Assembly: GCA_964641265.1 (NCBI GenBank)
Contig: CAZXKS010000001.1
Location: forward strand, 12,793 to 66,639
DNA: 53,847 nucleotides
Direction: 5' to 3'
From: an uncultured Methanosarcinales archaeon
GTDB taxonomy: Archaea > Nanobdellota > Nanobdellia > Woesearchaeales > ARS49
Shown: positions 2,633-29,886 of the stretch, piece after piece
Numbering within the stretch: the first letter of the stretch is position 1
Layout: each line of letters starts with the position of its first letter
Program-made: the position numbers and the translations under genes
Notes under the pieces: generated by a model
What the model was told of the DNA's origin: nothing
The model's database searches: none
What the model saw: the letters and a program-made list of their open reading frames with translations, nothing else

Positions 2633-2642
2633 TCAGCCCCTC

Positions 2643-4913: not shown

Positions 4914-5038
4914 TGTTTCACCTCTAACCCAAAATCCCTTTTTTCTGGCTAAACTATTTGAATACCAGTATATAAAGTTTCCTAACAGATACTTTTAAAT
5001 ATTCAAGCTGTGCTTTTTGCCGTAAAGAGGTTGACGCT

Positions 5039-8000
5039 GTGAATAAGCTAATACTGCTCGTTGTTTTGTTGTTGGTTTCTTGTGTTGGTCCTGGTCAAGC
5101 TATCGCGCGTTCTAATGTTTTGATTTATGTTAAGGATTCTGCTGGTGCTCCTCTTGTTGGTGCTTGGACTGGTATTTGTTACAATAATTGCAGAGTTAGC
5201 ACTCCTTCTTTTGCTTTGACTGATGCTCGTGGTGCTGCGCTTTTCAAAGGCGTGCCTGTTGGTGCTTACCAGTTTATTGTTGTCTCTAGTCCTTCTGATT
5301 ACCAAGCCTCTCCTGCAACTGCTACTTTGGCTTCTGCGTATGTTACTGTCACTCCTGTTCAGCTTCCTCGTGCTTGGACTTATAATTTCAGGACTGGAAT
5401 TACGCCAACGGCTTTTTGTGGAGATGGCAGGTGTACTGCTCCTGAGGATTTGAACAGTTGTCCACAGGATTGCAAAAGATGCGGTGATAACATTTGTACT
5501 GTTCCTTTCGAAAATCTACAAAATTGTGCTCGGGATTGTCATGTTTGTGGCGATACAATCTGTTCTTCTCCTTATGAAGACTCGATGAATTGCCCTATCG
5601 ATTGTCCGCCGCCTCTTGCTGGTCCATCCTGTGGCGATGGCGTTTGCAATGTTCCTGCCGAGGATTCATTCAGCTGTCCTCAGGATTGCCCGCCAACTCC
5701 ACCGCCCATGTGCACTTCTGCTGCACAGTGTAATGATGCTAACCCTTGTACTGCTGATACTTGCGCGAGTGGTACTTGTATGAATACTCTATTTGCGCCC
5801 TGCTGCGGTAACGTAGTTTGTGAGCCTGGCGAAACTTATTCCAGTTGTTCTAGTGATTGTCCTCCTCCATCAGCACCAAGTTGTTCTGATGGCATTAAGA
5901 ACGGTGATGAAACTGGTCTTGATTGTGGTGGTACGTGTTCAACAACTGCCCAGGGCAGCAAGCTTTGTACTGAGGGCGATGATTGCAATCCATTCGGGAA
6001 TGTGATGGAATGCGCGAGCACCCGTTGCGACCAGGCTACTGGAAAGTGTTCTAGAGCTTATGGTGACTATCTCTGCTCGTCATGCATACTGGGTGCATCA
6101 GGTCCTGCTACCTATTCATGTCGTGGAGCTGGTTGTGGTTCTGCAACAATCGCATACAACCACTGTACTGGTGGGCCCAGTGGGACTGGTTTAGGAAGCT
6201 GTCAGAAGCCTTGTTGGTTACAACCTCCAATGACCGGTGTCAGCGCTACCCACACTGCATACTGTGACGCGATTAGTCCAGCGCTTGGCGATCAATGCGC
6301 GACCAACCCGATTACAGGCAACTATCCAATGGGTCCGCCATTATGCTTAAGGGGCCCGCCTAGCGCAACGCCGTGCACCGCAGATGCCCAATGCGCTGAA
6401 TTCAAATGCGTGAGTGGTTCGTGCGCGACACCGACAACTTGCACCGATAGCGACAGTTCGATTACAACAAAGGGTACTGTGACGAATGATTGGAACAGCT
6501 ACACTGACCAGTGCGTTGGAAGCACGTTTACCTATAATCCAAGCTTAGGCATACCGCTTAGAACGACTCATGTTAAAGAAGGAACTTGTGGTGTTTCACC
6601 CACAAATCAACAGAATGCTATTGTAAAAAGCATAACTGCGTGCCCTTCACCAAACTATTGCGAAGATGGCGCGTGCAGGACACCAACGTGTACTGATGAT
6701 GATGGTGGCAATGATCTTACAAAGAAGGGGTCTGTGACGAGTGATGGCCAGGTCTGGATGCAGAAATCGACTGACAGGTGCGAGGTTGGTGTTCCAAGCT
6801 CGATTCGTGAATACACTTGTAATGTTGATGGATCGATTAAGGAAACTCTTACTTCATGTCCTGCAGGAACGCCTTTGTGTTCTGACGGTGCTTGCATTCA
6901 GAGTGTTGACTGGGTGCGCCAGTGGGGTACTGCTTCAGCTGATTATGCTCGCGGTGTAGTTGAGGTTGGCGGTAATGCTTATGTGACTGGCGTGCAGTTC
7001 TCAGCTAACGAGATTTTTGTTCGAAAGTATGATTCTACTGGCGCTCTTGTGTGGTCGCGCGAGTTTGGAACGTCAAATCCTGATGAGGCTTACGCTATTA
7101 CTGCTGATTCAACTGGCATTTATGTGGCAGGCATTACTGCTGGCGCGTTTTCAGGTACAAATGCAGGTGGTTATGACATTTTTGTTCGTAAGTATGATTT
7201 TGATGGCAATGTTGTCTGGACTGGCCAAGCAGGGACCGCGGGTGTTGATTATGCTTATGGTGTTGCTGTTGATACTACAGGAGTGTACTTAACTGGCTTT
7301 ACAACTGGGACTTTCAGCGGCCAGTCCAGAGTTGTTCCAGGCGGAACTGATCAGGATGGTTTTGTTGTGAAGTTTGATTTGGCTGGCAATTTTGTTTTTG
7401 CTCGTCAGTTTGGAACTTCGACTGTTGACGTTTCTCAGGGCATTGCTGCTGATGGAGCAAACGTTTATGCCGTTGGTTACACGCAGGGCGCGTTGACTGG
7501 AACTAATTCAGGATACACGGACGTCTTTGTACGCAAGTATGATAGTTCTGGAAATGTTGTCTGGACGAGACAATTTGGAACTTCAGCTAGCGATTGGGGT
7601 TTCGGAATTACTGCTGACTTAGCAGGAGTGTACGCGGTTGGCGCTACACAGGGTGCTTTGTCCGGGTCAAACCTAGGCGGGCCTAATGATGCATTTATGC
7701 GCAAGTTCAAAGCAGATGGCACTGTGGAGTGGACTCAACAATTCGGAACTTCTGCACAGGACCGCGCAAATGCAGTTGATATTGGCGCTACAGGCATTTA
7801 TGTAACTGGCTTCACAACGGGTGTCATGGCGACATCAACTGGAACATACGCGGATGCCTTTGTCCGTAAGTATGATGGCGCTGGTAGCGCGTTATGGACT
7901 CGCCAGTTTGGTACTTCTCAGGCTGATGATGCCTTAGGAATTTCTGCTAATTCAGCCGTTTTTGTTTCTGGCAGTGCATCCGGCACGTTCCCTGGTCAGA

Positions 8001-8053
8001 CTAGTGCAAGTGCTTTCATACATGACGCTTATCTTGCCAAGCTGACTGGTTAA
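5039..8053 (+). CDS. Secreted mosaic protein: CarboxypepD_reg-like domain, Cys-rich repeats, C-terminal SBBP-type beta-propeller repeats
   Basis: 1004-aa ORF (GTG start, AAGAGGT SD) with signal peptide MNKLILLVVLLLVSCVGPGQA. Five CGDG.C...E....CP.DC repeats, an IKNGDETGLDCGG motif and two C.D.D(S/G)...KG.V modules. Then about 8 repeats of FVRKYD..G...W..QFGT (beta-propeller repeat pattern). Confidence 0.7.
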   Translation: MNKLILLVVLLLVSCVGPGQAIARSNVLIYVKDSAGAPLVGAWTGICYNNCRVSTPSFALTDARGAALFKGVPVGAYQFIVVSSPSDYQASPATATLASAYVTVTPVQLPRAWTYNFRTGITPTAFCGDGRCTAPEDLNSCPQDCKRCGDNICTVPFENLQNCARDCHVCGDTICSSPYEDSMNCPIDCPPPLAGPSCGDGVCNVPAEDSFSCPQDCPPTPPPMCTSAAQCNDANPCTADTCASGTCMNTLFAPCCGNVVCEPGETYSSCSSDCPPPSAPSCSDGIKNGDETGLDCGGTCSTTAQGSKLCTEGDDCNPFGNVMECASTRCDQATGKCSRAYGDYLCSSCILGASGPATYSCRGAGCGSATIAYNHCTGGPSGTGLGSCQKPCWLQPPMTGVSATHTAYCDAISPALGDQCATNPITGNYPMGPPLCLRGPPSATPCTADAQCAEFKCVSGSCATPTTCTDSDSSITTKGTVTNDWNSYTDQCVGSTFTYNPSLGIPLRTTHVKEGTCGVSPTNQQNAIVKSITACPSPNYCEDGACRTPTCTDDDGGNDLTKKGSVTSDGQVWMQKSTDRCEVGVPSSIREYTCNVDGSIKETLTSCPAGTPLCSDGACIQSVDWVRQWGTASADYARGVVEVGGNAYVTGVQFSANEIFVRKYDSTGALVWSREFGTSNPDEAYAITADSTGIYVAGITAGAFSGTNAGGYDIFVRKYDFDGNVVWTGQAGTAGVDYAYGVAVDTTGVYLTGFTTGTFSGQSRVVPGGTDQDGFVVKFDLAGNFVFARQFGTSTVDVSQGIAADGANVYAVGYTQGALTGTNSGYTDVFVRKYDSSGNVVWTRQFGTSASDWGFGITADLAGVYAVGATQGALSGSNLGGPNDAFMRKFKADGTVEWTQQFGTSAQDRANAVDIGATGIYVTGFTTGVMATSTGTYADAFVRKYDGAGSALWTRQFGTSQADDALGISANSAVFVSGSASGTFPGQTSASAFIHDAYLAKLTG

Positions 8054-8110
8054 TTTCTTGTAGTAAAGAATTTAAGCACTTGTTGTTTTCTGTTATTAAA
8101 AAAAGAGACC

Positions 8111-10444
8111 ATGAACTCGCACCTTAGAATCTATTTGGCTTTTGGCATGTTGTTCTTCTTTGCTTTTCTTATTTGGAGGCCTGCGATTACTGGCAGGACT
8201 GTTGGTGGCGAGACTCAAACTGTTGTTGTTGTGTTAAAACCAGATGCTAGTAATGCTATTACTGGCGCTTCTGTTTTGAGTGATGAAGAGCCTTCTTTGG
8301 AAGAGCTGAAAGTTTTAACTGCAGAAGCCCAGAGAGAAGTGTTGGAGGACGTCAATAGTCCTTCTTTTTTTGAGCGTATTTTGTTTGTTAATCCTGAGCC
8401 GGATGTTGAGGCTGAGCGTACTTTGGAGATTGTGCCTGCCATGGTTGTTGAAGCCACTCCTGAGGGCATTGAAGAGCTTGAATCGCATCCTTTGGTCGAG
8501 GCTGTTTATCCCAACATTCAGTTCGAGTTGTTGCTTGCTCAGAGTGTTCCTTTGATTAATGCTGATGACGTCCAGGCTTTGCAGTTTAATGGGCAGAATA
8601 TTGATGGTCGTGGTAGGAGTGTTTGTGTTGTTGATACCGGTATTTCTCCCCACCAAGATTTCCAGGATAGGATTGTTGATCAGAAGTGTTTTTGTTCGCC
8701 AAATTGTTGTCCTAATGGCCAATCTACTGATGTTGTTGCAACCGATACTCATTCTATTAGTCATGGCACTCATGTTTCCGGAATTATTGGAGCTAACGGC
8801 CAGTTCAAGGGTGCCGCGCCTGGTGTTAATATTGTTGCGGTGAAGGTTTGTAATCTTGGTTGTGGTTTGGGTGATATTTTTGCTGGTATTGATTATTGTT
8901 TGCAGGTGAAGGATGCTTTTAATGTTGTTGCGATTAGTGGCAGTATTGGTGATGGTGGGAATTATCAATCTCAGCAGCAGTGTCCTACTTTTTTTGATGC
9001 TGCTATCGATGCTGCCTATAATGCAGGAGTAACTGGCGTGTTTGCTTCTGGTAATAATGGTTTTTCTAATGGTATTAGTTATCCTGGTTGTAATCCTAAT
9101 TCTATTGCTGTTGGTGCTACGGATAAAAATGATATTATCGCCAGTTTTACAAATCGTGGTTCTTTGCTTGATGTCTTGGCGCCTGGTGTTTCTATTACTA
9201 GCACAAAGGCTGGCAATACTTATGGCGCTTTGTCCGGCACCAGCCAAGCCACTCCTCATGTTTCTGGCGTTGTTGCTTTGTTGTCTCAGTTTGCTCAACT
9301 AAAAGGCATCCAGCTTTCTCCTGACCAAGTTAGGCAACTTTTGCAGGATACCGGCAAGCCTATCGGTAATTGGAAGCGTGTTGATGCGCTTGCTGCAGTT
9401 TTGTCTTTGAACGCTCCGCCTGTTGTTTCTATTTCTTCGCCAGTTGATGGTGCTGTTGTCCAGTCGTCTGTTACTTTGGAGGGTAGTGCTGTTGATGCCG
9501 AGGATGGTTCTTTATCTTCTGATAAGTTGTCTTGGGCTTCTGATATTTCCGGCAGTCTGGGCGCTGGGAATTCTTTGCAAATTGTTTTGCCTGTTGGTCC
9601 TCACACTTTAACTTTAACCGCTACAGATAGTATGGGAAAAACAGCTAGTGCTGTTGTACACTTAACTGTTCAGCAAACTCAAAACGCTCTTCCAGTCGCA
9701 ACTATTACAGTTCCTTCTGACAATGCTGTTGTTTCTTCTCCTGTTAATTTGGAAGGTTCTGCTTCTGATACAGAGGATGGTTCAATTCCTTCAGAGCAGT
9801 TGTCTTGGAGTTCTGATGTTTCTGGCAATTTGGGTACGGGTAATTCTTTGCAATCAAGCTTGCCTTCTGGTCTTCATGCGATTACTTTAACCGCAACTGA
9901 TAGCAATGGTGCTTTCGGAACCACGTTAGTTCACATTACAATTCAGCAACAATCCTCAAATAATCCGCCAAGCATAGCCATTACTTCTCCTACTGGGTCT
10001 TTTGTTCAGTCGCCTGTAACCTTTAGAGGTTCTGCGAGTGATGTTGAAGATGGTGTTTTGACAGGTACTTGGACTGAAAATGATGCTACTTTAGGTGTTG
10101 GTAATGAGTTGAATGTTGAGTTGCCTCAGGGTTCTCATTCTGTCACATTTTCAGCAACTGACTCAGCTGGTCTTATTTCTTCTTCTTCTGTTTCTTTTGT
10201 GGTTCAAACTTGTCAGTCAGATCTCGACCAGAATGCGAACAGTTTGCTTGACATTGGTGATTTTGTGCGTTTGTTGTCTTCTTTTGTTGCAGATTCTCTG
10301 CCTTGCAGCTCTGCATCCTCTTATTGTGTTGTTGAGTTGGACATGAATAATAATGGTGTTGTTGATATTGGTGATTTTGTTTTGTTGTTAAAGGCTTATG
10401 CTGAAGAACAGATTAATGATGTTAATGGCCAGTTGTGCGGTTAA
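8111..10444 (+). CDS. Secreted subtilisin-like serine protease (S8) with three Ig-like repeats and a C-terminal dockerin
   Basis: 777 aa with an N-terminal anchor and an I9-like propeptide. Catalytic motifs VCVVDTGI (D), HGTHVSG (H), SGTSQATPHV (S). Three ~95-aa repeats (P.V.I.SP.DG..V.S.V.L.GSA.D.EDG...). C-terminus DLDQNANSLLDIGDFVRLL ... ELDMNNNGVVDIGDFVLLLKAY is a duplicated dockerin Ca-binding segment. Confidence 0.85.
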   Translation: MNSHLRIYLAFGMLFFFAFLIWRPAITGRTVGGETQTVVVVLKPDASNAITGASVLSDEEPSLEELKVLTAEAQREVLEDVNSPSFFERILFVNPEPDVEAERTLEIVPAMVVEATPEGIEELESHPLVEAVYPNIQFELLLAQSVPLINADDVQALQFNGQNIDGRGRSVCVVDTGISPHQDFQDRIVDQKCFCSPNCCPNGQSTDVVATDTHSISHGTHVSGIIGANGQFKGAAPGVNIVAVKVCNLGCGLGDIFAGIDYCLQVKDAFNVVAISGSIGDGGNYQSQQQCPTFFDAAIDAAYNAGVTGVFASGNNGFSNGISYPGCNPNSIAVGATDKNDIIASFTNRGSLLDVLAPGVSITSTKAGNTYGALSGTSQATPHVSGVVALLSQFAQLKGIQLSPDQVRQLLQDTGKPIGNWKRVDALAAVLSLNAPPVVSISSPVDGAVVQSSVTLEGSAVDAEDGSLSSDKLSWASDISGSLGAGNSLQIVLPVGPHTLTLTATDSMGKTASAVVHLTVQQTQNALPVATITVPSDNAVVSSPVNLEGSASDTEDGSIPSEQLSWSSDVSGNLGTGNSLQSSLPSGLHAITLTATDSNGAFGTTLVHITIQQQSSNNPPSIAITSPTGSFVQSPVTFRGSASDVEDGVLTGTWTENDATLGVGNELNVELPQGSHSVTFSATDSAGLISSSSVSFVVQTCQSDLDQNANSLLDIGDFVRLLSSFVADSLPCSSASSYCVVELDMNNNGVVDIGDFVLLLKAYAEEQINDVNGQLCG

Positions 10445-19887: not shown

Positions 19888-19964
19888 TTTTCGGGTGTTT
19901 CTCTGCCTTCATTTCATACCACCCCCATGCGCTTCGCGCGCAAACTTGAAGGCAATACCCTTGG

Positions 19965-19998
19965 CCCCTCCCGTTGGAGGGGTTCTTTTTTCTTTTTT
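19965..19998 (+). terminator. Hairpin plus T-tract downstream of ftsZ
   Basis: CCCCTCC-cgtt-GGAGGGG followed by TTCTTTTTTCTTTTTT. Confidence 0.5.
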
Positions 19999-20165
19999 GT
20001 GAGCTTCAGCGAACAAAAAAGTGCTCGGCAACGTGAGTTGTCGACATTTTTAGGTGAGGAGCGTTAGCGAAGTCAACGACATTTTCATTCGCCCCTATAC
20101 TACCCCGAAACATTTATATATGCTATATATAATTAGGTTATTTACGCAAAAACGGGTGAAAGCAA

Positions 20166-23100
20166 GTGTTTAATTGCTCAGGGCGGAAAATTGTTTTGTT
20201 TCTTGTTTTGATTCTCTCGCTTGCAGGTGCTGCTGTTGCCCAACGCGTTCCTCCACCTCAATGTTCTTCTGATGCTGATTGTACTCCGCCTAAAACTTGC
20301 CAGTATTATGAGGGGTATGGTAATATTTGTGGTAATGGTTTCGGCGTTTGTCCTAACCCCGCTCATACCTGTTTTGAACAAGACGGCGCTGGTTGTAGTG
20401 ATGAAACATGCTGCAATAATATTTGTGGTATCGACCCTTTCTGTTGTAATGTTGATTGGGATGGCATTTGTGTGAGCGAGGCAAATAGTTTATGCGGACC
20501 TCCTCCTGAAGAGCCTGACCCTGAAGAATTGTTTGATCTAGAGCAGAAAATTGTTGATATGCAAACAATGCTGAATAAGTTGAATATTGAATTCAGTCTT
20601 ATGAAGAACTTGCTCCAGCAGGCTGTTGATGAGGCAAATGCTGGAAACATTCCTGCTTCTCTTGCTCATTTGCAGAACGCGCTTGATTTTATCGAGTTGA
20701 TTAAGCTGCAAAAGTTTGACTTGGAGAATTTGGTTGATGAGTTTGATAGAGAGCTGGAATCTTTGGATTCAGAAACTCGCTCGCAATTTCAGGCAATAAC
20801 GTCTGAAATACGTCGTGAACTTGAGCTTATTAATGCAATATTGCATAATAATGGTGAAGAACCCCCCATTCAAGGGTGTGGAAACGCCTTGGATGACGTT
20901 GCCGACTATATCAGCTGTACTTTGAATCCGGGTGAGGACTTCTTTATTCGCTTGCAAGACTTGATTCAAAACGGCGCTATTCCTGCCCTTGATGATGTTA
21001 TTGCTGAGAAGGAAAATATTGAGAATGTGAAGGTCGAAGCGTTGTCTGACTTGTTGGACAGTCTTATTGACGAGTTTGGCCCGGCAGTTCCACCGCCTTT
21101 TAATCCTAATTCTCCTGCGCTTGATGAGTTGAAAAAGGAGCTCTTTGACTTAAAGGAAAAAGGGTTGGAATTGCAAAGCATTCTTGCAGAGGCTGATGAG
21201 GAGCTTGTTGATATTAATAAAATCTTGGAAGAAGCTCGTGGGCTGCTTGAAGGAGCATGTGCATCATGTGATTCAGGAGGGACCGAGGAGGATTGTGATG
21301 TTTGTACGAATGATGATCGCCGCAATAGAGCTGCTCGTCTGATTGAGCGCGCTATTGTTATCAAGCATATTATTGCTGGTCCTTTTGAGTGTGAGCTGGC
21401 CAGCGAATGCGGTGTGTGTGAGGGAGAGGGTGCATGCCAGGACGGCGTCAAGATTCAGGACTTTGAGGAATTGAAGGGTGAGGCTGAGGAAGAGCTTGTT
21501 GAGTTGCGAAATAAGATTCAGGATCTCTGTAATGCAGAATTTATTGATGATAGGCGTTGCGACAAGTTCTTGCGTGCCAGTCATTCTATATTTAATAATG
21601 AAGATTCATTCAACCTTTTGAATTTGATCAATGAGGAGATCGATGGCGAAGGTGTTTCTTTCCAGAGCATTCTCGGTGAAGTAGATGGTGAGTTGAATCA
21701 AGCAATAGCAGATGTACAAACTGATGCGGATAATGCGGTTGATGAGATTGGGAATGCTATTGCATTGGTAAACCAAGCAATAATTCTCAAGGAATTCATT
21801 GAAGATATTAAAATTGGCCAAAAGTATTTCTTCTTCCTTAACTTTATTATTAATGATATTGGCACTATGCCTCGTGAGCCTCTTGATCAGATCTGGCTTG
21901 GCGAGGTTAAGGAGGAGTGGTTTAACATTCAGGTCAAGCTTCTCTGGCTTAATGATATGTTGAAGGATTTGAATGGTGAGATTGATATTCTCGAGAAGGA
22001 TATTCTTGACATCCAGAGCGCTTTTGAGTGTGAAGGTGAAGAATGTAGTGAATTAGAAGCCATCCAGGTTTTGCTTAAAAAGCTCGTTAATGCGATTGTT
22101 AAGGACATTATTACTTTGGTCGAGATTAATGAGTTGACTGATTTGATTGATGATATTCGTACGGAAAAGCGATTGGTTGAGGGAAAAATTAATTTGCTTT
22201 GCGGCGAAGAGTTTGATGATCTTAGCGTGACTGTTAATGGTCCGATTCTTGATGATGATCGTTTGTGTGATAAGCTTGAAAGAAAGCTTGCTGGAATGAA
22301 TAAGTTGCTTGACTTTATTGATGAGGAATTGGAAGAGATTACTGGTAAGCTTGGTGATTTGCTTGGTGGCTTGTTTGAATTCCTGTTCGCCATCCTTGGC
22401 CAGATTTTTACAGTCAGTGACGAGCCTATAACAAGTGAGAATTATCTTACTGTGATTGAACAGTTGTACCAGCAGTTGGGCCAGGCAGTTCAGCAGGGCA
22501 CTGTGGTGCAGAGCATTCAGCCTGCTCAGTTTGAGGAGTTTTTCGAGTTTGCGTTGGATAAAATACGTGATGCTCGGGCTGAGAAGGAGACTATTGAATT
22601 GCATAAGTTCCCGTTGTTATTCGAGCGATTTAGAACTATCGAAGATCTTATTGGTGGCTCTGTAAAGCCTGTCAACGAGTTGGACGCTGCTGAAGAGGCT
22701 GAAGAAGTTAGGGATATTCAGACCAAGCTTATTGAGATGAATAATTTGCTTGAATTGCTGAACAAGCAGTCTGATATTTTGATTGATTTTCTCATTGCTG
22801 TATTGAATGGTGAAAACCCTGACGTTCCAGATTTCGCAGGTATATTTAGCTCGATGGAACAAGAGCTTGATGGCCTTGTGAACATAAAGGCAGACTTTGA
22901 GAGTGAAATTAATGCCTTGGAAGGCAGCATCAGCGGACTTTCTGATGATCAAATAAACCCTGCGATTAAAGAGCATATTTTGCGTAATATAAATAAGATA
23001 AAATCGCTGGCGGAACTGACGAATATTGAGTTCTTTATTATGAACATCCTGCTTGACGAAGCTATATCTGCAGCCGAGAACGAGAACGCTGAGGATGCAT

Positions 23101-23720
23101 TCATATTCCTTGTGTTGTTCAAGGCTGAGAAGGAGGCTGTTGAGCAAAAGAAATTGGTTGCTATTGAGGCCGGGCTTTTGGAAATTGAGAATGCCTTGTT
23201 TGGTTGCGATGATGATGACCATGATAAATTGTTTGAGAATCCATTCTGCTTTGGTGGTTGTGGCCTAGACGACCATTGTGGCGATGGCAAGGTTCAGTTT
23301 GCTTTGTTCGAGCAGTGTGATGATGGTAATAATGTAGATAATGATGGTTGTACTAATGCTTGCCAGTTGCCTCGTTGTGGCGATGGTATCTTGCAGAATG
23401 GCGAGAAGTGTGATGATGGCAATAATGTTGATAATGATGCTTGCAGTAGTGAGTGTTTGATTCCTGATCCTGATGGGGACACTATTTGTGATAATACTAA
23501 GGGTATTTTGCCTTGCCAGTATAATCAAGGTTGTGAAACTAATTTGGATTGCGGCATGGGCGGCGCGTGTATGTATGGAACGTGCAAGTGTCCGGGCGTG
23601 AAGTGCGAAGGAGATGTTGATTGTGTTGGCCATATTGATTGCACGGGAATTGGTCAAAGCTGCGCTGTTCCTGGTGCTTGTGAGTTTTGTGATGATGGTG
23701 AGTGTAAATGTTCAGATTAA
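20166..23720 (+). CDS. Giant secreted acidic coiled-coil protein flanked by Cys-rich modules
   Basis: 1184 aa (GTG start, GGGTGAA SD) with a signal peptide. N-terminal Cys-rich module includes CCNNICGIDPFCCNVDWDGIC. About 850 aa are E/D/L/I-rich helical sequence. Near the C-terminus are two CGDG.....E.CDDGN.VDND.C...C repeats (Myxococcus-type cysteine-rich repeat pattern) and a Cys-rich tail. Confidence 0.7.
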   Translation: MFNCSGRKIVLFLVLILSLAGAAVAQRVPPPQCSSDADCTPPKTCQYYEGYGNICGNGFGVCPNPAHTCFEQDGAGCSDETCCNNICGIDPFCCNVDWDGICVSEANSLCGPPPEEPDPEELFDLEQKIVDMQTMLNKLNIEFSLMKNLLQQAVDEANAGNIPASLAHLQNALDFIELIKLQKFDLENLVDEFDRELESLDSETRSQFQAITSEIRRELELINAILHNNGEEPPIQGCGNALDDVADYISCTLNPGEDFFIRLQDLIQNGAIPALDDVIAEKENIENVKVEALSDLLDSLIDEFGPAVPPPFNPNSPALDELKKELFDLKEKGLELQSILAEADEELVDINKILEEARGLLEGACASCDSGGTEEDCDVCTNDDRRNRAARLIERAIVIKHIIAGPFECELASECGVCEGEGACQDGVKIQDFEELKGEAEEELVELRNKIQDLCNAEFIDDRRCDKFLRASHSIFNNEDSFNLLNLINEEIDGEGVSFQSILGEVDGELNQAIADVQTDADNAVDEIGNAIALVNQAIILKEFIEDIKIGQKYFFFLNFIINDIGTMPREPLDQIWLGEVKEEWFNIQVKLLWLNDMLKDLNGEIDILEKDILDIQSAFECEGEECSELEAIQVLLKKLVNAIVKDIITLVEINELTDLIDDIRTEKRLVEGKINLLCGEEFDDLSVTVNGPILDDDRLCDKLERKLAGMNKLLDFIDEELEEITGKLGDLLGGLFEFLFAILGQIFTVSDEPITSENYLTVIEQLYQQLGQAVQQGTVVQSIQPAQFEEFFEFALDKIRDARAEKETIELHKFPLLFERFRTIEDLIGGSVKPVNELDAAEEAEEVRDIQTKLIEMNNLLELLNKQSDILIDFLIAVLNGENPDVPDFAGIFSSMEQELDGLVNIKADFESEINALEGSISGLSDDQINPAIKEHILRNINKIKSLAELTNIEFFIMNILLDEAISAAENENAEDAFIFLVLFKAEKEAVEQKKLVAIEAGLLEIENALFGCDDDDHDKLFENPFCFGGCGLDDHCGDGKVQFALFEQCDDGNNVDNDGCTNACQLPRCGDGILQNGEKCDDGNNVDNDACSSECLIPDPDGDTICDNTKGILPCQYNQGCETNLDCGMGGACMYGTCKCPGVKCEGDVDCVGHIDCTGIGQSCAVPGACEFCDDGECKCSD

Positions 23721-23742
23721 AAACTTGCGAGGTTGATGTAAA

Positions 23743-24921
23743 ATGAAACGAGGAAACACTGGTTTGGTTGTTTTGGTAATGGTTGGCGTGGTGTTGTTCC
23801 TCGGCCTCTTCTTTTTACTTAGCGATAGCTCTCAACCTTCAGGTTATGTTACTCTGCCCACAACTCAGACGCCATGCTCAAGTGATACTGATTGTATGAG
23901 CTTCCCGTATTGCCAATCTGAAGATTCTGATAAACGCTGTTTCAACGGTTTCTGTACTTGTGTTGATCCTTGCCAAAATGGCGCCGAGTGTAGTCCTTTT
24001 GGTGAGGCTTCTCAGCAGTGTGGTTTGCTTAACGGCGATCCTGGTTTTGCTAGCACGTGTGTTTCTACAGATGCGTTTGGCAACAATGGCGCCTGTAGCT
24101 GTACTGGTAGCTGCGAGGACGTAGAAGGAATTCAATGTAGCACAATTGCTGTTTCTCCTTTGACTGCACCTTCTTTCACGCCTTGTGGTGATAAGGCTCA
24201 TTGTATCATTACTGGATTTAGTGATGGCACTGGCTTTGGTGTTTGTGGTTGTGGCGATCAGGCTTGTTTGACTCCTAATGGTAAGACTGATGATTGTTCT
24301 GGTACTGTTGGCTGCGAGCAAGGTCCTTCTTGCGCGAGTAATTCTGATTGTCCTTCTGGCTTCTTCTGTGGCCAGGGCACTTGCTTTAAGGAGTGCAACA
24401 CGAATGCTGATTGTGGCGGTCTTGTTAGTGGAAGCTGCAGTATTGAAGTTAATGGCAATAAGGGGTGCAACTGCTTCTGTAATGCAGGAAATCCTTGCTT
24501 TGTAGATGATAACTGTGGCAATTTTGGTGAAGATGGCAACTTTGGTCAGTGCATTGTTCATCCTGATGGCGCTAAAAAGTGCAGTTGTACTGATACTCAT
24601 GGCTGCTCGCCTCTTGATTGCGAGCCTGGCGTGACTCGTTGCAATTCTGGAGATCCTCTAGGTTGTGGCGGTAATCCTGATGCTTGCCAGTGCAGTAATG
24701 GCAATAATTGTGTTTGCGAGGCGTGTGCAGAGAAATGTGGTGTCTTCGGCGAAGGCGCGAATGAGGAAGGAGAATGCGAGGAATTAGCAGCCCAGACTGG
24801 TGCAGAATGCAATTTCGTGTCGTACGATCAGTCAGGCCACTGTGAATGCGTCTGGCCAGATGATTTGTGCACGACTTGCTTTAATACTAATGGAGGCCAG
24901 GCTTGTGGTGAAAATGAATAA
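23743..24921 (+). CDS. Secreted extremely Cys-rich protein
   Basis: 392 aa with an N-terminal anchor/signal. My hand count gives about 53 Cys, arranged in EGF/knottin-like C.C and C..C spacings. It starts 22 nt after the previous gene. Confidence 0.65.
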   Translation: MKRGNTGLVVLVMVGVVLFLGLFFLLSDSSQPSGYVTLPTTQTPCSSDTDCMSFPYCQSEDSDKRCFNGFCTCVDPCQNGAECSPFGEASQQCGLLNGDPGFASTCVSTDAFGNNGACSCTGSCEDVEGIQCSTIAVSPLTAPSFTPCGDKAHCIITGFSDGTGFGVCGCGDQACLTPNGKTDDCSGTVGCEQGPSCASNSDCPSGFFCGQGTCFKECNTNADCGGLVSGSCSIEVNGNKGCNCFCNAGNPCFVDDNCGNFGEDGNFGQCIVHPDGAKKCSCTDTHGCSPLDCEPGVTRCNSGDPLGCGGNPDACQCSNGNNCVCEACAEKCGVFGEGANEEGECEELAAQTGAECNFVSYDQSGHCECVWPDDLCTTCFNTNGGQACGENE

Positions 24922-25684
24922 GTTTTATCTTGCTAGCATTGTGTTTTTGGCTAGCTTGATTGCCGTCTCTGCTGGCGAGTTTCCTGACGAGGACAAGGAC
25001 GGTATTTGTGAAACTCCGTTCTGTGACAGGCTTGACTTGTGTCCTAAGACTGCTTGTGAGCTTTTGGACATTCCTGTTGAGAATTGTCAGAACCCTGATA
25101 ATACTGATACTGACGGTGATGGCGCTGCAGATGTTTGTGATGAGTGCCCTACTGATCCTACGCGTGTTCAGGAGCCTTGCCCTCCGCCTAGAAGAGGCCC
25201 GGGCGGCGGTAGTGGTGGTGCTGGTGTAGAAACCGGTTGCCGTTCATTTACTGACTTTAGTCCGCAATTCCACCAGCGTGTTGGCTGGCTTTGCACTCAT
25301 GATAAGGAGTGTGTGACTCTTGCTTCGAAGTTTGGCAGGTCTGATCCTGAGAATTATGCTTGTGTGATTGTTGGTAGACAGCAGGGTGCTGGTGCTGTTA
25401 TGAATAATTGTGAGTGCTCGTATAGAAAGCCTCCGTCTTCAGCTCCTCAGTCCTCAATACCTACTGAGATTGTTCAGATGGAGCTTAGAGGCCAGACTCC
25501 GCCTCAGGCACCTCCTCAGCAGTTTGCTCCGAGTGCGCCTGTGCAGAGTCCGTATGTTGGTCGTGCTTTTGAGCAGCCTTCACCTGGCAGTCCTGGTTGG
25601 TTGCCTTTTGCGTTGGCTGGTATTCTTGTTGTCGGCGGCGTGGCTTTGTACTTGGTATTGCGTAGTCGCATACGCCCCCAATAA
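24914..25684 (+). CDS. Secreted Cys-rich protein with a thrombospondin type-3-like Ca repeat and a C-terminal TM anchor
   Basis: In-frame ATG at 24914 (MNKFYLASIVFLASLIAVSAG signal) overlaps the upstream stop by 8 nt. NPDNTDTDGDGAADVCDECPTDP motif, a Gly-rich linker, and C-terminal PGWLPFALAGILVVGGVALYLVLRSRIRPQ (sorting-signal-like). Confidence 0.6.
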   Translation: MNKFYLASIVFLASLIAVSAGEFPDEDKDGICETPFCDRLDLCPKTACELLDIPVENCQNPDNTDTDGDGAADVCDECPTDPTRVQEPCPPPRRGPGGGSGGAGVETGCRSFTDFSPQFHQRVGWLCTHDKECVTLASKFGRSDPENYACVIVGRQQGAGAVMNNCECSYRKPPSSAPQSSIPTEIVQMELRGQTPPQAPPQQFAPSAPVQSPYVGRAFEQPSPGSPGWLPFALAGILVVGGVALYLVLRSRIRPQ

Positions 25685-25716
25685 ATTATTAAACAATTTC
25701 TTTTTATTTTGGTTTT

Positions 25717-26820
25717 ATGTGGGCTAAATGGGTGTTTTTGTTAATCTTGCTTATTGCTTGTCAGAATGCTGATATTTTGACTGGCGATGTTGTGCTTGAG
25801 ATGGAGGGTTCTTCTGATTCATCATCCGAACTTCTTTTTGTTGAACAGGAAGACGTGAAGGATGAGCGTTTAGAGTTTGCCAAAAAGCTTGGTCGTGCTG
25901 GCAAGGACAAGCGTTCTCTTTATGAAGAGTATGTTGATGTTATTGGCGCTAACGGCATTCTTGATGGTATAAAGGAATTGTGGCCTAATTGTCATTCTGA
26001 AGCGCATGATATTGGAAAGGTGATTTTTGCAAGGCTTGGCGATGTTGGCCAGAGTTTGCGTGTTTGCGCTGATAGTTGTCATACTGGTTGCATGCATGGC
26101 GTGCTCATGGAGGCTTTGTCTGGTGTGAATGCATCAGACGCTGAAGGCCATATTGATCCTGAGGCTCTTAAACCGTTCATGGATGAGATTTGTCTTAAGA
26201 ATGAGCAGATGGTTTCTGATTATTTGCCTGGCGAGTGTTCTCATGGTGTTGGCCATGCGCTTGCTTTTTTGTCAGGTTATGATATTTCTGAGGCCATCGG
26301 TGGTTGTAATGAGTTCAATAACTCTGGGATGAAATATTATTGTGCTAGTGGTGTTTACATGGAGTATGTTGCAGTGCGCGATAAAGAGGATAAAAAAACC
26401 AGGAGTTTGTTTTACCCTTGTGATACGTATGATTATCCTGCTGCTTGTGCTTGGCATAAGGTTCCTTATGTTTCCTCGAGGCTTTACAAGGCAGGTAAAA
26501 AGCTTCCTGAGATTGTTCAGGAGTGTGAAAAGCTTGATGGTAAGTTCAGGCTTGGTTGTTTTCACGGCTTGGGCAATGCGCATGCTGGTTTGATTACTCG
26601 TGGCAAGCTTGATATTAAGGATCTTTGTCTTCATGGAAGTGAGGCTGAACAGGTTCTATGTATCGAGGGTTCTGTTGAGCGTATGGCAAGGTATTATGAA
26701 AATAAGACTAGGGAGGTATGTGAGAAGCAGTTGGATGGCAAGCATGAAGAAATCTGCCTTACTGCTGTCAAAAACAAGATGAATAATATTAACAAGAATT
26801 TGACTCTTTATCTTGAGTAA
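25717..26820 (+). CDS. Secreted/lipoprotein-like Cys/His-repeat protein of unknown function
   Basis: 367 aa with signal MWAKWVFLLILLIACQ. Seven to eight ~33-aa helical repeats each start with a Cys-containing motif (CHSEAHDIG, CMHGV, CSHGVGHA, CASGVYME, CFHGLGNAHAG, CIEGSVE). Confidence 0.55.
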   Translation: MWAKWVFLLILLIACQNADILTGDVVLEMEGSSDSSSELLFVEQEDVKDERLEFAKKLGRAGKDKRSLYEEYVDVIGANGILDGIKELWPNCHSEAHDIGKVIFARLGDVGQSLRVCADSCHTGCMHGVLMEALSGVNASDAEGHIDPEALKPFMDEICLKNEQMVSDYLPGECSHGVGHALAFLSGYDISEAIGGCNEFNNSGMKYYCASGVYMEYVAVRDKEDKKTRSLFYPCDTYDYPAACAWHKVPYVSSRLYKAGKKLPEIVQECEKLDGKFRLGCFHGLGNAHAGLITRGKLDIKDLCLHGSEAEQVLCIEGSVERMARYYENKTREVCEKQLDGKHEEICLTAVKNKMNNINKNLTLYLE

Positions 26821-28636: not shown

Positions 28637-29170
28637 TTGAGACTGGAACAAATTTTGGATACTGAATCAGCGGAATTTAAGTCAGCTTGGGAGATATACG
28701 AATCTTCCTTTCCTTCTGATGAGCGACGGAATCTCAACCAGCAGACTGAGCTTTTGAAAAACCCTCTTTACAAGTTCTTTGCTGCATACGACAATGGAAG
28801 TATAGTTGGGATTATAGGAACTTGGCAAATTGTTGATTTTGTTTTTATAGAGCATTTTGCAATTAAAGAAGGCTTGAGAGGTACAGGTTTGGGAACCTCA
28901 TTGTTGAATGCATTTATTCCGGGTAAAAGGGTTGTGCTTGAAACTGAACGCCCTGTTAATGATACTACAAGGCGGAGGATTGGTTTCTATGAAAGGCTTG
29001 GCTTCAAGTTGAACACCTATAACTACACTCAGCCTGCATACTCACCCGATAAGAAACCTGTACCTATGTTCTTGATGTCATGCCCTGAAACTTTGAGCGA
29101 ATCAGAATTTGTTGGAATAAGAAGGTTGTTGCACACTGTTGTTTATGGCCTTGAAAAGCCGTTAATTTAA
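28637..29170 (+). CDS. GNAT-family N-acetyltransferase
   Basis: The track ORF 28607..29170 begins inside the tRNA. The first plausible start is in-frame TTG at 28637, immediately after the tRNA. LRGTGLGTSLL acetyl-CoA loop and FYERLGF motif. The exact start is uncertain. Confidence 0.7.
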   Translation: MRLEQILDTESAEFKSAWEIYESSFPSDERRNLNQQTELLKNPLYKFFAAYDNGSIVGIIGTWQIVDFVFIEHFAIKEGLRGTGLGTSLLNAFIPGKRVVLETERPVNDTTRRRIGFYERLGFKLNTYNYTQPAYSPDKKPVPMFLMSCPETLSESEFVGIRRLLHTVVYGLEKPLI

Positions 29171-29886
29171 TCCTCATCTTCTTTGCAGTATCCGCCCACT
29201 ACTTCTATTCCTTCGTGGAATAATGTTGCATTGGCTGGCTCGTAGGTGACTGTTGCGTTTTCTGCTATGCGTATGCTTTGGTTATCGAAGTCAAATGTTA
29301 TGCTTCTGTCATTCAGCCATTCCGCTGCTTTTACGTTGAATTCATGTTCTTTAATTTCATAAAGCTCTGTTCTGCCCAAATCCGAGACGATTTTGCAAAG
29401 TTTTTTCTCTTCAATTTTTATGCACAAGCTTGTTCTCAGGTTTGTTGGTGCGCAGCGCTCAAATTTGTTGCATTGTGTGTGGATGCAGCAGCCATCTCTG
29501 TCTATGCATCTTTTTTGTTCTTCGCAGTATATTTTGTCGCTTGCACACCTGCATTCGCCTTTCTTTAGTTCTTCTCCGAAATTGCATTCTTTTGGCTCTT
29601 GGCATACTCCTTCTTCGCAGTTGCCTGTATCGCAGTCTTCATTTGTGCAGCATGTTTCTTCGTCTATGCATTTATTGTTGCAGAGTTTTTTGCCTGTGCC
29701 GCACGTGCAGACTCCTGCTTGGCAGAATCCAATTGTGCAGTTTATGTTTGCACAAAGGTCTTTTTCTTGTTCTATATTAGCTTGTTCTGCCACAGCTTGA
29801 TGTTCAGAAGTAGGCACTGTTCGTAATGCCGGCTCGCATGCTGCCAGCAAGATTAGAAGAATAACGAAAAGATGCTTAACCCCCAT
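29167..29886 (-). CDS. Cys-rich lipoprotein-like secreted protein
   Basis: 239 aa. MGVKHLFVILLILLAAC is lipobox-like. Repeated C...C.....C motifs occupy the first 150 aa, followed by a non-Cys beta-rich C-terminal domain. Confidence 0.6.
   Translation of the reverse strand: MGVKHLFVILLILLAACEPALRTVPTSEHQAVAEQANIEQEKDLCANINCTIGFCQAGVCTCGTGKKLCNNKCIDEETCCTNEDCDTGNCEEGVCQEPKECNFGEELKKGECRCASDKIYCEEQKRCIDRDGCCIHTQCNKFERCAPTNLRTSLCIKIEEKKLCKIVSDLGRTELYEIKEHEFNVKAAEWLNDRSITFDFDNQSIRIAENATVTYEPANATLFHEGIEVVGGYCKEDED

Follow-up and report, generated by a model that had tools for sequence, protein, structure and literature searches.

The window, by which we mean the whole 53,847-nucleotide stretch of DNA analysed here, probably derives from a DPANN archaeon that is Nanoarchaeia/Woesearchaeota-like. 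Downstream of its FtsZ gene lie four co-directional genes, designated g1 to g4 (Table 1), with intergenic gaps of 22, −8 and 32 nt. A sequence-only reading made before this work had given the same layout, and its gaps and the lengths of the first three proteins agreed with the ORF list. The comparative evidence identifies the four ORFs as real genes and not chance ORFs, because three other metagenomic genomes carry their orthologues with intact frames and in the same order, and a contig 99.85% identical to the window has the same gene set. No enzyme family was found for g1, g2, g3 or g4 with Pfam, NCBIfam, PHROGs or PADLOC, in agreement with the same reading, which saw no enzymatic motif, and no adhesin or lectin domain was recognised in the cassette. 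All signal-peptide proteins encoded across the window have a pI of 4.0–4.7, whereas its cytoplasmic proteins are neutral to basic. The domain types of the cassette (DUF4215/TIGR02232 and DUF8252-like repeats) are of extracellular type.

Table 1. Genes, expression signals and g1 segments at the locus (positions in the window; aa, residues of the respective protein; KD, hydropathy value).
Feature	Position	Strand	Details	Basis
Hairpin and T-run after FtsZ	19963..19998	+	Upstream border of the variable slot
TATA-like TTTATATA upstream of g1	20113..20120	+		Sequence reading
GGGTGA, ribosome-binding site of g1	20154-20159	+		Sequence reading
g1	20166..23720	+	1184 aa; GTG start, GGGTGA 7 nt upstream	ORF list
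g1 signal peptide	20166..20240	+	aa 1-25, ends ...AVA before Q; KD 2.21	Inspection
g1 N-terminal Cys cap	20262..20495	+	aa 33-110; CSSDADCxPPxTCQYY motif and DUF8252-like unit (aa 69-110)
g1 helical region	20514..23204	+	aa 117-1013; about four predicted tandem modules
g1 hydrophobic segment LLGGLFEFLFAILGQIFTV	22359..22415	+	aa 732-750; KD 1.91
g1 DUF4215/TIGR02232 repeats (two)	23271..23456	+	aa 1036-1097	Pfam, TIGR02232 matches
g1 C-terminal Cys-rich tail	23466..23717	+	aa 1101-1184; includes DPDGDxICD
GAGGT, ribosome-binding site of g2	23729-23733	+		Sequence reading
g2	23743..24921	+	392 aa	ORF list
GGTGA before g3	24907-24911	+	Within the end of g2	Sequence reading
g3	24914..25684	+	256 aa; ATG within longer ORF 24800-25684
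g4 promoter-like element ATTATTAAAC	25685..25710	+	About −27 from the ATG, then T-run	Sequence reading
g4	25717..26820	+	367 aa	ORF list

The first gene encodes a strongly acidic protein (D+E 20.7% against K+R 7.2%, pI 4.06) with 57 Cys residues, predicted to carry a signal peptide and to be without a membrane anchor; equivalent signal peptides are present in the L004 and L062 orthologues. The Cys modules at its two ends, described in the earlier reading, were both located, with CCNNICGIDPFCCNVDWDGIC at aa 82-102 and the two CGDG...CDDGN.VDNDGC units at aa 1038-1093. In the N-terminal cap, the unit CC..C..DPFCC..WD..C is assigned to PF26780/DUF8252 in a precomputed annotation that marks the match as 'weak', and by BLASTP it is 57% identical (E=9e-11) to the repeats of P0002, a protein with five copies. 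The cap is found in the window g1 only and is missing from the L004 orthologue, and its first motif occurs in the g2a paralogue of relatives, a distribution that suggests module shuffling. At the other end, the repeats scored 36.4 bits with DUF4215 (Pfam PF13948; cut-off 27) and 55.3 bits with TIGR02232 (two units; cut-off 20.8). They are the best-conserved part of g1, with 70-76% identity to orthologues against 43-46% for the N-terminal modules; the tail that follows is 63-67% identical, and many of its Cys residues are invariant in the orthologue alignment.

The region between the two ends had been read as a coiled-coil fibre of about 850 aa, which our analysis does not bear out. Loops with Pro, Gly and Cys break the predicted helices, which are 25-66 aa long, a 3.5-residue periodicity is patchy, with significant power in some 84-aa windows only, and the region divides into about four tandem modules of about 170-270 aa each (aa 117-318, 316-578, 576-842 and 840-1013). 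DSSP assigned 24 helices of 4-66 aa on the low-confidence AF2 model, which is unusable in three dimensions (pLDDT 36, pTM 0.24). The modules carry conserved Cys pairs (e.g., LC..EF...DDRRCDK), and segment profiles cross-match about 260 aa apart with i-E values down to 1e-7, the database consisting of four sequences; with z-scores of 1.4-4.1 for module pairs, the signal for internal repeats is no more than moderate. The centre of g1 is thus predicted to be helical but segmented, not one continuous coiled coil. A single match to these ~900 aa was obtained among 1.84 billion (1.84e9) representatives, and by this search the centre is an orphan without a characterised homologue. The earlier statement that no characterised homologous system was known therefore stands for the centre, but not for the Cys-rich tips, which belong to the DUF4215/TIGR02232 repeat family and, by the weak match above, probably to DUF8252.

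Some features of this helical region could be taken to mean that g1 is membrane-active, its hydrophobic-rich helices either forming a tunnel, as in a lipid conduit resembling an Mce needle, or inserting into a partner membrane in a fusogen-like manner, for uptake from a host. In a profile search, positions 161-312 weakly match the helical part of the needle in a mycobacterial Mce protein (8fed_E, E=0.002), and aa 732-750, rich in Phe, Leu and Gly, form the only strongly hydrophobic internal segment of a region in which LIVMF content is 30-40%. The Mce match, however, is borderline, shows low identity and covers amphipathic helix only, and neither an MCE domain nor a permease nor an ATPase is encoded nearby. 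The hydrophobic, Phe-rich character of aa 732-750 is kept in the orthologues, yet these have acidic residues within it, and the predicted structure of g1 gives no support. We consider such an activity extremely unlikely.

The second protein is exceptionally rich in Cys: a hand count had given about 53, and the exact count is 53 (13.5% of residues), about 45 of the positions being invariant in an alignment of seven family members. It is predicted to be held by an N-terminal transmembrane anchor (aa 6-28, KD 3.23) and to expose the Cys residues in its ectodomain. The start MK[RQ]G and the 23-aa hydrophobic helix behind it are invariant in all seven. No pilin model of Pfam or NCBIfam matched g2, and its residues at −2 and +1 deviate from the usual class III (type IV pilin-like) signal motif. 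This N-terminus is more simply read as a plain signal anchor than as an archaeal class III signal peptide.

In contrast to the N-terminal anchor predicted for g2, the 14-Cys protein g3 is predicted to be type-I anchored, with a signal peptide, a C-terminal transmembrane helix and a basic tail in all four orthologues. Its signal peptide is followed by an acidic Cys domain (aa 22-92), a Gly linker, a second Cys domain and a Pro/Gln-rich stalk that leads to the membrane helix. Identity to the orthologues is 69-70% in the N-domain and 12-54% in the remainder. Both NTDTDGDGAADVCDECPTDP and the tail PGW...RSRIRPQ noted earlier are present. The acidic domain contains one DxDxDGxxDxCDxCP motif of thrombospondin type 3 (TSP3)-like character, DTDGDGAADVCDECPTDP, which occurs as a single copy and is kept in three of the four orthologues, L062 being without its second half; it scored 9.7 bits with Pfam TSP_3 (PF02412; E=0.9), below the cut-off of 25. 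The domain probably binds Ca2+. The C-terminal tail had been likened to an archaeosortase-type sorting signal. That comparison found no support because the PGW is not conserved: the residues preceding the membrane helix are PGW, GGLAP, LSWVP and SPVAG in the four orthologues. In addition, no NCBIfam sorting-signal model matched g3 at E<=1, and no archaeosortase was found among the ORFs of the 54-kb window, where the sole large polytopic protein is an MFS transporter.

The gene order of the cassette was followed in related metagenomic genomes. L003, L004 and L062 keep the order g1-g2-g3, and at the junctions their genes overlap or are closely spaced; these three have two g2 paralogues (a and b), and the L062 copy of g1 is split by an in-frame stop (TAG). 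The TTTATATA element also precedes the g1 orthologues in L004 and L062, and a ACGGGTGAA motif is common to the window and L062. Within g1-g2-g3 of the window, g1 only is preceded by a conserved TATA-like element, while g2 and g3 are preceded by ribosome-binding sites. The hairpin after FtsZ, whose sequence is kept in L001 and L004, is the best terminator-like site in the region.

Whether g4 belongs to this unit bears on the earlier proposal that all four genes form one operon and one apparatus, taken here to imply that g4 (17 Cys, 12 His) is a Cys/His-rich subunit and that an archaeosortase processes g3. The gene lies on the same strand 32 nt past g3, it adjoins the cassette in each of the four genomes where one occurs, and at other DPANN and Peribacteria loci it frequently has next to it a gene for a large protein with DUF4215- or TSP3-like motifs. 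Against this, g4 has its own promoter-like element: (T)TTATTAAC is found at the same distance upstream of its homologues in L001, L003, L004, L007, L008 and L062, whether the preceding gene is g3, FtsZ or an unrelated one. Moreover, g4 occurs without g1-g3 in L001 and L006 and, with unrelated neighbours, in many bacteria. A relative whose FtsZ is 91% identical has g4 by itself between FtsZ and diphthine synthase, and in L001 the hairpin after FtsZ is followed directly by the g4 element. With the archaeosortase part unsupported as well, a single four-gene apparatus is very unlikely. What persists of the proposal is the coupling and conserved order of g1-g2-g3, which appear to constitute the unit, a rare, conserved co-directional set of exported Cys-rich proteins, and g4 is better regarded as a separate, widely conserved gene adjoining the slot.

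The slot itself is variable. It is empty in L001 and L006, is filled in L008 by an unrelated Cys-rich cassette with transmembrane anchors and in L007 by yet another cassette; with the genes missing from a close relative and the L062 copy of g1 interrupted, the cassette is dispensable. Between the window and its relatives, identity is 49% for g1 (L003 and L004), 32-37% for g2 and 59-69% for g3 (N-terminal part only), against 89-91% for FtsZ and 83-86% for Dph5 in the flanks. By these alignments, g1-g3 is diverging far faster than its flanks. This pattern speaks against a general envelope or matrix scaffold, either S-layer-associated or a Ca2+-crosslinked acidic matrix, with no role in cell contact. 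Extreme acidity and Ca2+-type motifs (the TSP3-like DxDxDG and the acidic Cys repeats) would suit cation-bridged lattices, and membrane anchors are present; a core part of the envelope, however, should neither be missing from a relative with a 91%-identical FtsZ nor be replaced by unrelated cassettes, and identities of 35-49% are unexpected beside flanks at 83-91%. We regard the scaffold explanation as unlikely.

The same variability could mean that g1, g2 and g3, all exported, evolve fast and independently, form no complex and merely share a recombination-prone island of surface genes. The differing exported Cys-rich genes that relatives hold between FtsZ and g4/dph5 would fit, as would a g2 copy number of one or two. 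Yet four genomes share the order g1-g2-g3 although their proteins are only 35-50% identical, g2 and g3 overlap or lie within 1 nt of each other in all four, and the conserved promoter-like element stands at g1 only, all of which makes a chance neighbourhood quite unlikely.

We propose that g1-g2-g3 is a lineage-specific, fast-diverging cell-surface module for contact, and give this reading a probability of roughly 0.55; the surface location, a complex made up of all three proteins, the rod shape of g1 and the contact function are what we infer. In this proposal, g1 would be exported via a cleavable signal peptide as an elongated acidic protein of about four tandem disulfide-stapled helical modules, tipped by a variable Cys-rich cap at the N-terminus and by the conserved DUF4215 acidic Cys repeats at the C-terminus. 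Having no anchor, it would most likely depend on the two anchored proteins encoded with it to stay at the surface: g3, fixed at its C-terminus, would place its TSP3-like acidic domain on the Pro/Gln stalk, and g2, fixed at its N-terminus, would carry a densely disulfide-bonded ectodomain. The docking surfaces are probably the two well-conserved parts, the C-terminal end of g1 and the N-domain of g3, whereas g2 and the N-terminal half of g1, which is poorly conserved, may be the exposed variable parts. Contact could be with another cell, a host or a matrix, if a symbiotic lifestyle is assumed. The predicted topologies fit the earlier picture of a long secreted protein with accessory and anchoring subunits, except that g4 would not be one of them.

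Thrombospondin/COMP-type proteins combine a helical oligomerisation region, Cys-rich modules and Ca2+-binding type-3 repeats. The cassette resembles them in design, having a helical region, disulfide-rich modules and Ca2+-type motifs (DxDxDGxxDxCDxCP in g3, DPDGDxICD in g1), but it has one TSP3-like motif and no array, its parts are spread over three polypeptides and homology is not detectable. The earlier reading calls to mind coiled-coil surface stalks such as the tetrabrachion found in Staphylothermus marinus, an archaeal membrane-associated surface protein made up largely of long alpha-helix, as is proposed for g1. Tetrabrachion has its own anchor, and its parallel coiled coil is long and runs without interruption; in g1 the predicted helices of 25-66 aa are separated by loops, periodicity is patchy and an own anchor is lacking. 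Spectrin-type repeats and the FIVAR-GA arrays of Staphylococcus Ebh form rod-like proteins of tandem helical bundles. Tandem helical modules along an exported protein are also predicted for g1, to which they may give an extended shape; the g1 modules are larger, stapled by Cys pairs and without detectable sequence relationship to these arrays.

The C-terminal repeats link g1 to proteins with TIGR02232/DUF4215 units. The CGDGI.Q.GE.CDDGN..dgDgC pattern of g1 aligns, as a weak match, to residues 865-931 of human pappalysin-1, and the units sit in large exported proteins, as in g1; unlike those, g1 has just two units, which cap a ~900-aa orphan helical region. A diatom adhesive-trail protein contains twelve DUF4215-type repeats, and the function of the domain is stated as unknown (bioRxiv 10.1101/2023.03.06.531300). 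Because DUF4215/TIGR02232 has no assigned function, membership does not explain g1. In Nanoarchaeota populations, the highest density of non-synonymous SNPs was found in genes for hypothetical cell-surface proteins (PMC6142677). Such fast-varying surface proteins of Nanoarchaeota and other DPANN resemble the cassette, a lineage-restricted and rapidly diverging exported set in a small-genome archaeon, but they are a category, not a family. The literature searched contained no description of the cassette composition together with its fixed place beside g4/dph5.

To our knowledge, little has been learned at the molecular level about how cells of DPANN archaea recognise others and stay attached to them. 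The locus offers a defined, testable three-gene candidate for such contact, with a clear predicted topology (a secreted modular protein, two oppositely anchored partners, and conserved and variable ends) and with natural controls in a close relative without the cassette and another with a different cassette at the same site. Since the slot is bounded by the terminator-like site after FtsZ and the promoter-like element of g4, it is easy to find and would also be a usable landmark for surface-gene turnover in the lineage. Should the cassette turn out to be a further variable surface antigen, the result would be ordinary for such an organism.

The g4 protein deserves attention of its own. It matches no Pfam or NCBIfam family, but more than 330 homologues exist in archaea and bacteria, including Nitrospira, Gemmatimonadota and Gammaproteobacteria, and an alignment of homologues shows 16 invariant Cys and 6 invariant His. 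A lipobox L-[AT]-A-C is kept in most of 33 aligned homologues, archaeal and bacterial, and marks g4 as a predicted lipoprotein. The AF2 model (pLDDT 89.6) is an all-alpha solenoid for which no match was found in the PDB. A large unannotated family across both domains, with a confidently predicted and unmatched fold, merits its own family description. From the recurrent adjacency of g4 to genes for large repeat proteins, the only evidence for it, one may conceive of g4, as a disulfide-stapled Cys/His solenoid, forming a membrane-bound base for docking or maturation that small-genome episymbionts (DPANN, and CPR such as Peribacteria) have in common and that supports interchangeable, lineage-specific heads for partner recognition. 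The head would be g1-g2-g3 here and other DUF4215- or TSP3-type repeat proteins in relatives; g1 would then serve such a contact device as its shaft, and the conserved hydrophobic segment at aa 732-750 might engage the partner membrane. We consider this very unlikely, as homologues of g4 are also found in free-living bacteria, beside unrelated neighbours.

The four co-directional genes g1 to g4 matched the open reading frames described in the sequence-only reading, with intergenic gaps of 22, −8 and 32 nt, and the motifs quoted there were found in g1 (aa 82-102 and 1038-1093) and in g3. The reported lack of an enzyme motif was borne out, as 0/4 proteins matched an enzyme family in Pfam, NCBIfam, PHROGs or PADLOC. 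The set is bordered by FtsZ immediately upstream and by diphthine synthase (Dph5) immediately downstream; the window further encodes four tRNAs, an RNA cyclase, ribosomal protein S13/S15, an ATP-dependent DNA ligase and two helicases, one archaeal-type and one XPD-type. The window is archaeal chromosome, its nearest public contigs are MAGs, and a DPANN-type origin is probable.

Coordinates of the genes, g1 regions and neighbouring features (L numbers are public contigs compared with the window)
Feature	Sequence	Position	Strand	Details
g1	window	20166-23720	+	GTG start; 1184 aa; 57 Cys; D+E 20.7%, K+R 7.2%; pI 4.06
Signal peptide	g1	aa 1-25
Cys cap	g1	aa 33-110
Helical region	g1	aa 117-1013
CxxC...CxxC insertion	g1	aa 364-379 (window 21255-21302)		CASCDSGGTEEDCDVC
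Hydrophobic segment	g1	aa 732-750 (window 22359-22415)		LLGGLFEFLFAILGQIFTV; KD 1.91
Two DUF4215 units	g1	aa 1036-1097
Cys-rich tail	g1	aa 1101-1184
g2	window	23743-24921	+	392 aa; 53 Cys
g3	window	24914-25684	+	internal ATG of ORF 24800-25684; 256 aa; 14 Cys
g4	window	25717-26820	+	367 aa; 17 Cys, 12 His
Exported acidic cluster	window	1580-10444
Lipobox protein	window	29167-29886	-	239 aa; LLILLAAC; 10.5% Cys; no Pfam family
In-frame TAG in g1	L062	5149-5151		...SEMS*VRDHL...
1-nt deletion in g4	L066	~9270		equivalent to window 25971
GGDEF-domain gene	L001	2075-3304
GGDEF-domain gene	L062	1753-2682
Second slot family	L008	5900-7918, 7947-9008, 11121-12116
Second slot family	L007	666-1859
Large protein beside g4 homologue	L007	666-1859
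Large proteins beside g4 homologue	L008	5900-9954, 11121-12116
Large protein beside g4 homologue	L037	3662-6886		1074 aa; TSP3-rich; C-terminal anchor
Large protein beside g4 homologue	L016	4312-7965
Large protein beside g4 homologue	L018	11051-16603		1850 aa
Large protein beside g4 homologue	L019	11717-15352

The four genes had been read as one operon, an unlikely rival to a smaller unit. Upstream of g1 there is a conserved TTTATATA of its own together with a ribosome-binding site, and the upstream signals of g2 and g3 are ribosome-binding sites only. A conserved promoter-like element, (T)TTATTAAC, stands at about −27 from the g4 ATG in seven loci irrespective of the upstream gene, its window copy starting at the g3 stop codon. 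On these signals g1-g2-g3 (the cassette) is the likely transcription unit, with possible read-through into g4. That the genes are merely unlinked neighbours is less likely, given their order in relatives, which is kept for g1-g2-g3 in three contigs. In L004 (GCA_973527055.1) we found FtsZ, g1 (1110 aa), two g2 paralogues, g2a (420 aa) and g2b (395 aa), g3 (249 aa), g4 and Dph5; the cassette is the same in L003, truncated at the contig end, and in L062, where the upstream flank differs. L066, 99.85% identical to the window, has the window gene set.

In L001 and L006 the cassette is absent and g4 follows the FtsZ terminator at once. In L008 the slot between FtsZ and g4 is filled by three unrelated exported proteins rich in Cys (672, 353 and 311 aa), two of which have a C-terminal TM anchor, and another such protein, of 331 aa, follows g4; in L007 the gene directly before g4 belongs to the L008 family. 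The FtsZ proteins of L001 and L008 are 91% identical to that of the window. Among the relatives the flanking proteins are 89-91% (FtsZ) and 83-86% (Dph5) identical to the window, and the identities are 49% for g1, 32-37% for g2, 59-69% for g3 (N-terminal part only) and 57% for g4. Conservation is highest in the C-terminal repeats of g1 (70-76%) and the N-domain of g3 (~70%), and variability is greatest in g2 and in the first half of g1 (43-46%). Between the window and L066, g1 has four substitutions (three non-synonymous, one synonymous) and g2 and g3 have none, too few for a selection test. The second slot family, found in L008 and L007 at this FtsZ-g4-dph5 slot, combines DUF4215-like repeats with a helical domain containing (V/Y)(L/V)(F/W)DLA(V/M)(G/S)HNMLFSKV(M/Q)DLLHI. 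The in-frame stop that breaks g1 in L062 and the deletion that splits g4 in L066 could each be true decay or an assembly error.

The end modules of g1 belong, by sequence, to known repeat families of unassigned function. The C-terminal CGDG...CDDGN...C units are a cysteine-rich acidic repeat, scoring 36.4 bits against Pfam DUF4215 (cut-off 27) and 55.3 bits against TIGR02232 (cut-off 20.8), and in a PDB search they aligned weakly to the corresponding repeat in pappalysin-1 structures. The N-terminal CC..C..DPFCC..WD..C unit appears to be a further copy of the module that the protein collection lists, as a weak match, under PF26780/DUF8252; it has 57% identity (E=9e-11) to P0002, a protein with five copies of this module. 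Literature searches returned no functional data for DUF4215, DUF8252 or DPANN Cys-rich surface proteins. The N-terminal Cys cap occurs in the window only among the relatives compared, and its first motif, CSSDADCxPPxTCQYY, is found in g2a of relatives, which indicates module exchange within the cassette.

In sequence searches the centre of g1, ~900 aa long, came out as an orphan. An exhaustive phmmer search with aa 115-1030 against 1.84 billion representative proteins gave one match, P0123, the L062 orthologue. Word-index homologue searches with g1 and a four-sequence g1 profile, in which Cys-repeat words swamped the candidates, returned only g1 itself and one DUF8252 repeat protein, and a metagenome scan with the g1 profile returned only an unrelated DUF4215 fragment. 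All known g1 relatives were reached by walking the neighbourhoods of g4 homologues. The claim that no homologous system is known thus stands for the centre but not for the end modules.

The centre had been described as a coiled-coil fibre of ~850 aa. Our AF2 model of g1, built from a two-sequence alignment, was used for secondary structure alone because of its low confidence (pLDDT 36, pTM 0.24). In this model aa 119-1012 form 24 helices, the main ones 25-66 aa long and separated by loops that fall where Pro, Gly and Cys cluster in the sequence. Hydrophobic periodicity of 3.5-3.6 residues was strong in some 84-aa windows only. A canonical fibre failed this test, and the centre is, on the model, not one continuous coiled coil. 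When profiles of 80-aa segments were built from the orthologue alignment, they cross-matched segments elsewhere in g1, always ~260 aa away (535-614 to 277-347 and 805-872; 445-524 to 673-731; reciprocal matches too), with i-E down to 1e-7 as computed on a four-sequence database. The four modules align with a common start (EE.FD[LI]Q.K...L..LN), middle (LC..EF...DDRRCDK) and end (AEKE.IE..K...G..PP.NP), at pairwise z of 1.4-4.1. Moderate evidence thus points to four tandem disulfide-stapled helical modules. A PDB profile search with g1 gave a borderline match to an Mce helix, and a membrane-active or Mce-like conduit is an unlikely rival explanation. Segment aa 732-750 is the sole strongly hydrophobic internal segment of g1, and its Phe-rich hydrophobic character is retained in orthologues. 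The CxxC...CxxC insertion is present in the window g1 only and missing in the L003 and L004 orthologues.

No family scored above threshold with g2, its match to the TIGR04201 Cys repeat being sub-threshold (E=0.005). MK[RQ]G and a hydrophobic helix of 23 aa are common to 7/7 g2-family proteins, as are ~45 invariant Cys. We read the N-terminal helix as a predicted anchor; no model supports a pilin-type signal. In g3 a signal peptide is followed by an acidic Cys domain (~70% conserved, bearing a DxDxDG motif), a Gly linker, a variable second domain and a Pro/Gln stalk, and the chain ends in a TM helix and basic tail. Its likeness to TSP3 comes down to one motif (HMM E=0.9, below significance). 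The proposal that g3 carries an archaeosortase signal is not supported: the tripeptide preceding the TM helix differs in each orthologue, no sorting-signal model matches g3, and the window contains no archaeosortase. PDB sequence and profile searches with g2 and g3 gave noise only. A viral or defence origin was rejected, with nothing found in PHROGs, in PADLOC or in IMG/VR, the last scanned twice with profiles of g2 and g3.

The g1 protein has no anchor, and the co-encoded g2 and g3 are predicted to be anchored at opposite ends. In the simplest model, the stalked head of g3 would serve at the membrane as docking site for the g1 C-terminus, possibly in a Ca2+-dependent manner, and docked g1 would project its variable tip outward, with g2 as a second anchored, variable component. 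An envelope scaffold is a less likely rival explanation for the same proteins. The presence, absence and replacement of the cassette in close relatives fits partner recognition, or some other surface function under selection for diversity, and this turnover agrees with reports on Nanoarchaeota surface proteins (PMC6142677). The cassette is a set of lineage-specific, fast-evolving exported and probably surface-located proteins, a category already known from small-genome archaea. Its design recalls thrombospondin/COMP-type matrix proteins and rod-like adhesins with helical repeats, but homology to either is not detectable.

The signal-peptide proteins of the window all have a pI of 4.0-4.7 and its cytoplasmic proteins are neutral to basic; acidity is therefore a trait of the exported proteome, and salt-in halophily was ruled out as its source. 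Further exported acidic proteins cluster elsewhere in the window: two (350 and 756 aa) have no family, one of 1004 aa contains an SBBP beta-propeller repeat and is 6.3% Cys, and one of 777 aa is a secreted subtilase that carries Ig/PKD domains. The lipobox protein has candidate counterparts of 239-248 aa with ~10% Cys in L003, L004, L008 and L062, matched by size, strand and position alone; this ORF adjoins ribosomal protein S15 where gene calls exist. GGDEF-domain (diguanylate-cyclase-type) genes, unusual for archaea, lie close to the locus in two related archaeal contigs.

The g4 gene is, from its sequence and distribution, separate from the cassette, and its large unannotated family is the most notable by-product of this analysis. 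The family comprises more than 330 proteins at ~45-60% identity in DPANN archaea, CPR bacteria, Nitrospira, Rokubacteria, Gemmatimonadota and Gammaproteobacteria, and has no Pfam or NCBIfam model; we followed homologues P0004-P0122 at loci L006-L060, and the bacterial ones have unrelated neighbours. Family members share a lipobox, 16 invariant Cys and 6 invariant His, with the motifs CHSEAHDxGK, CxxxCxxGCMHG, CAHGxGHA and GCFHGxGN. PDB sequence and profile searches gave no notable match. The AF2 model of g4 is confident (pLDDT 89.6, pTM 0.85) and is an all-alpha solenoid; a structure search found no PDB match, the weak neighbours being ARM/importin-type solenoids only (TM <=0.26). Large exported proteins bearing DUF4215- or TSP3-like acidic Cys motifs stand immediately next to the g4 homologue at several loci from DPANN and Peribacteria.
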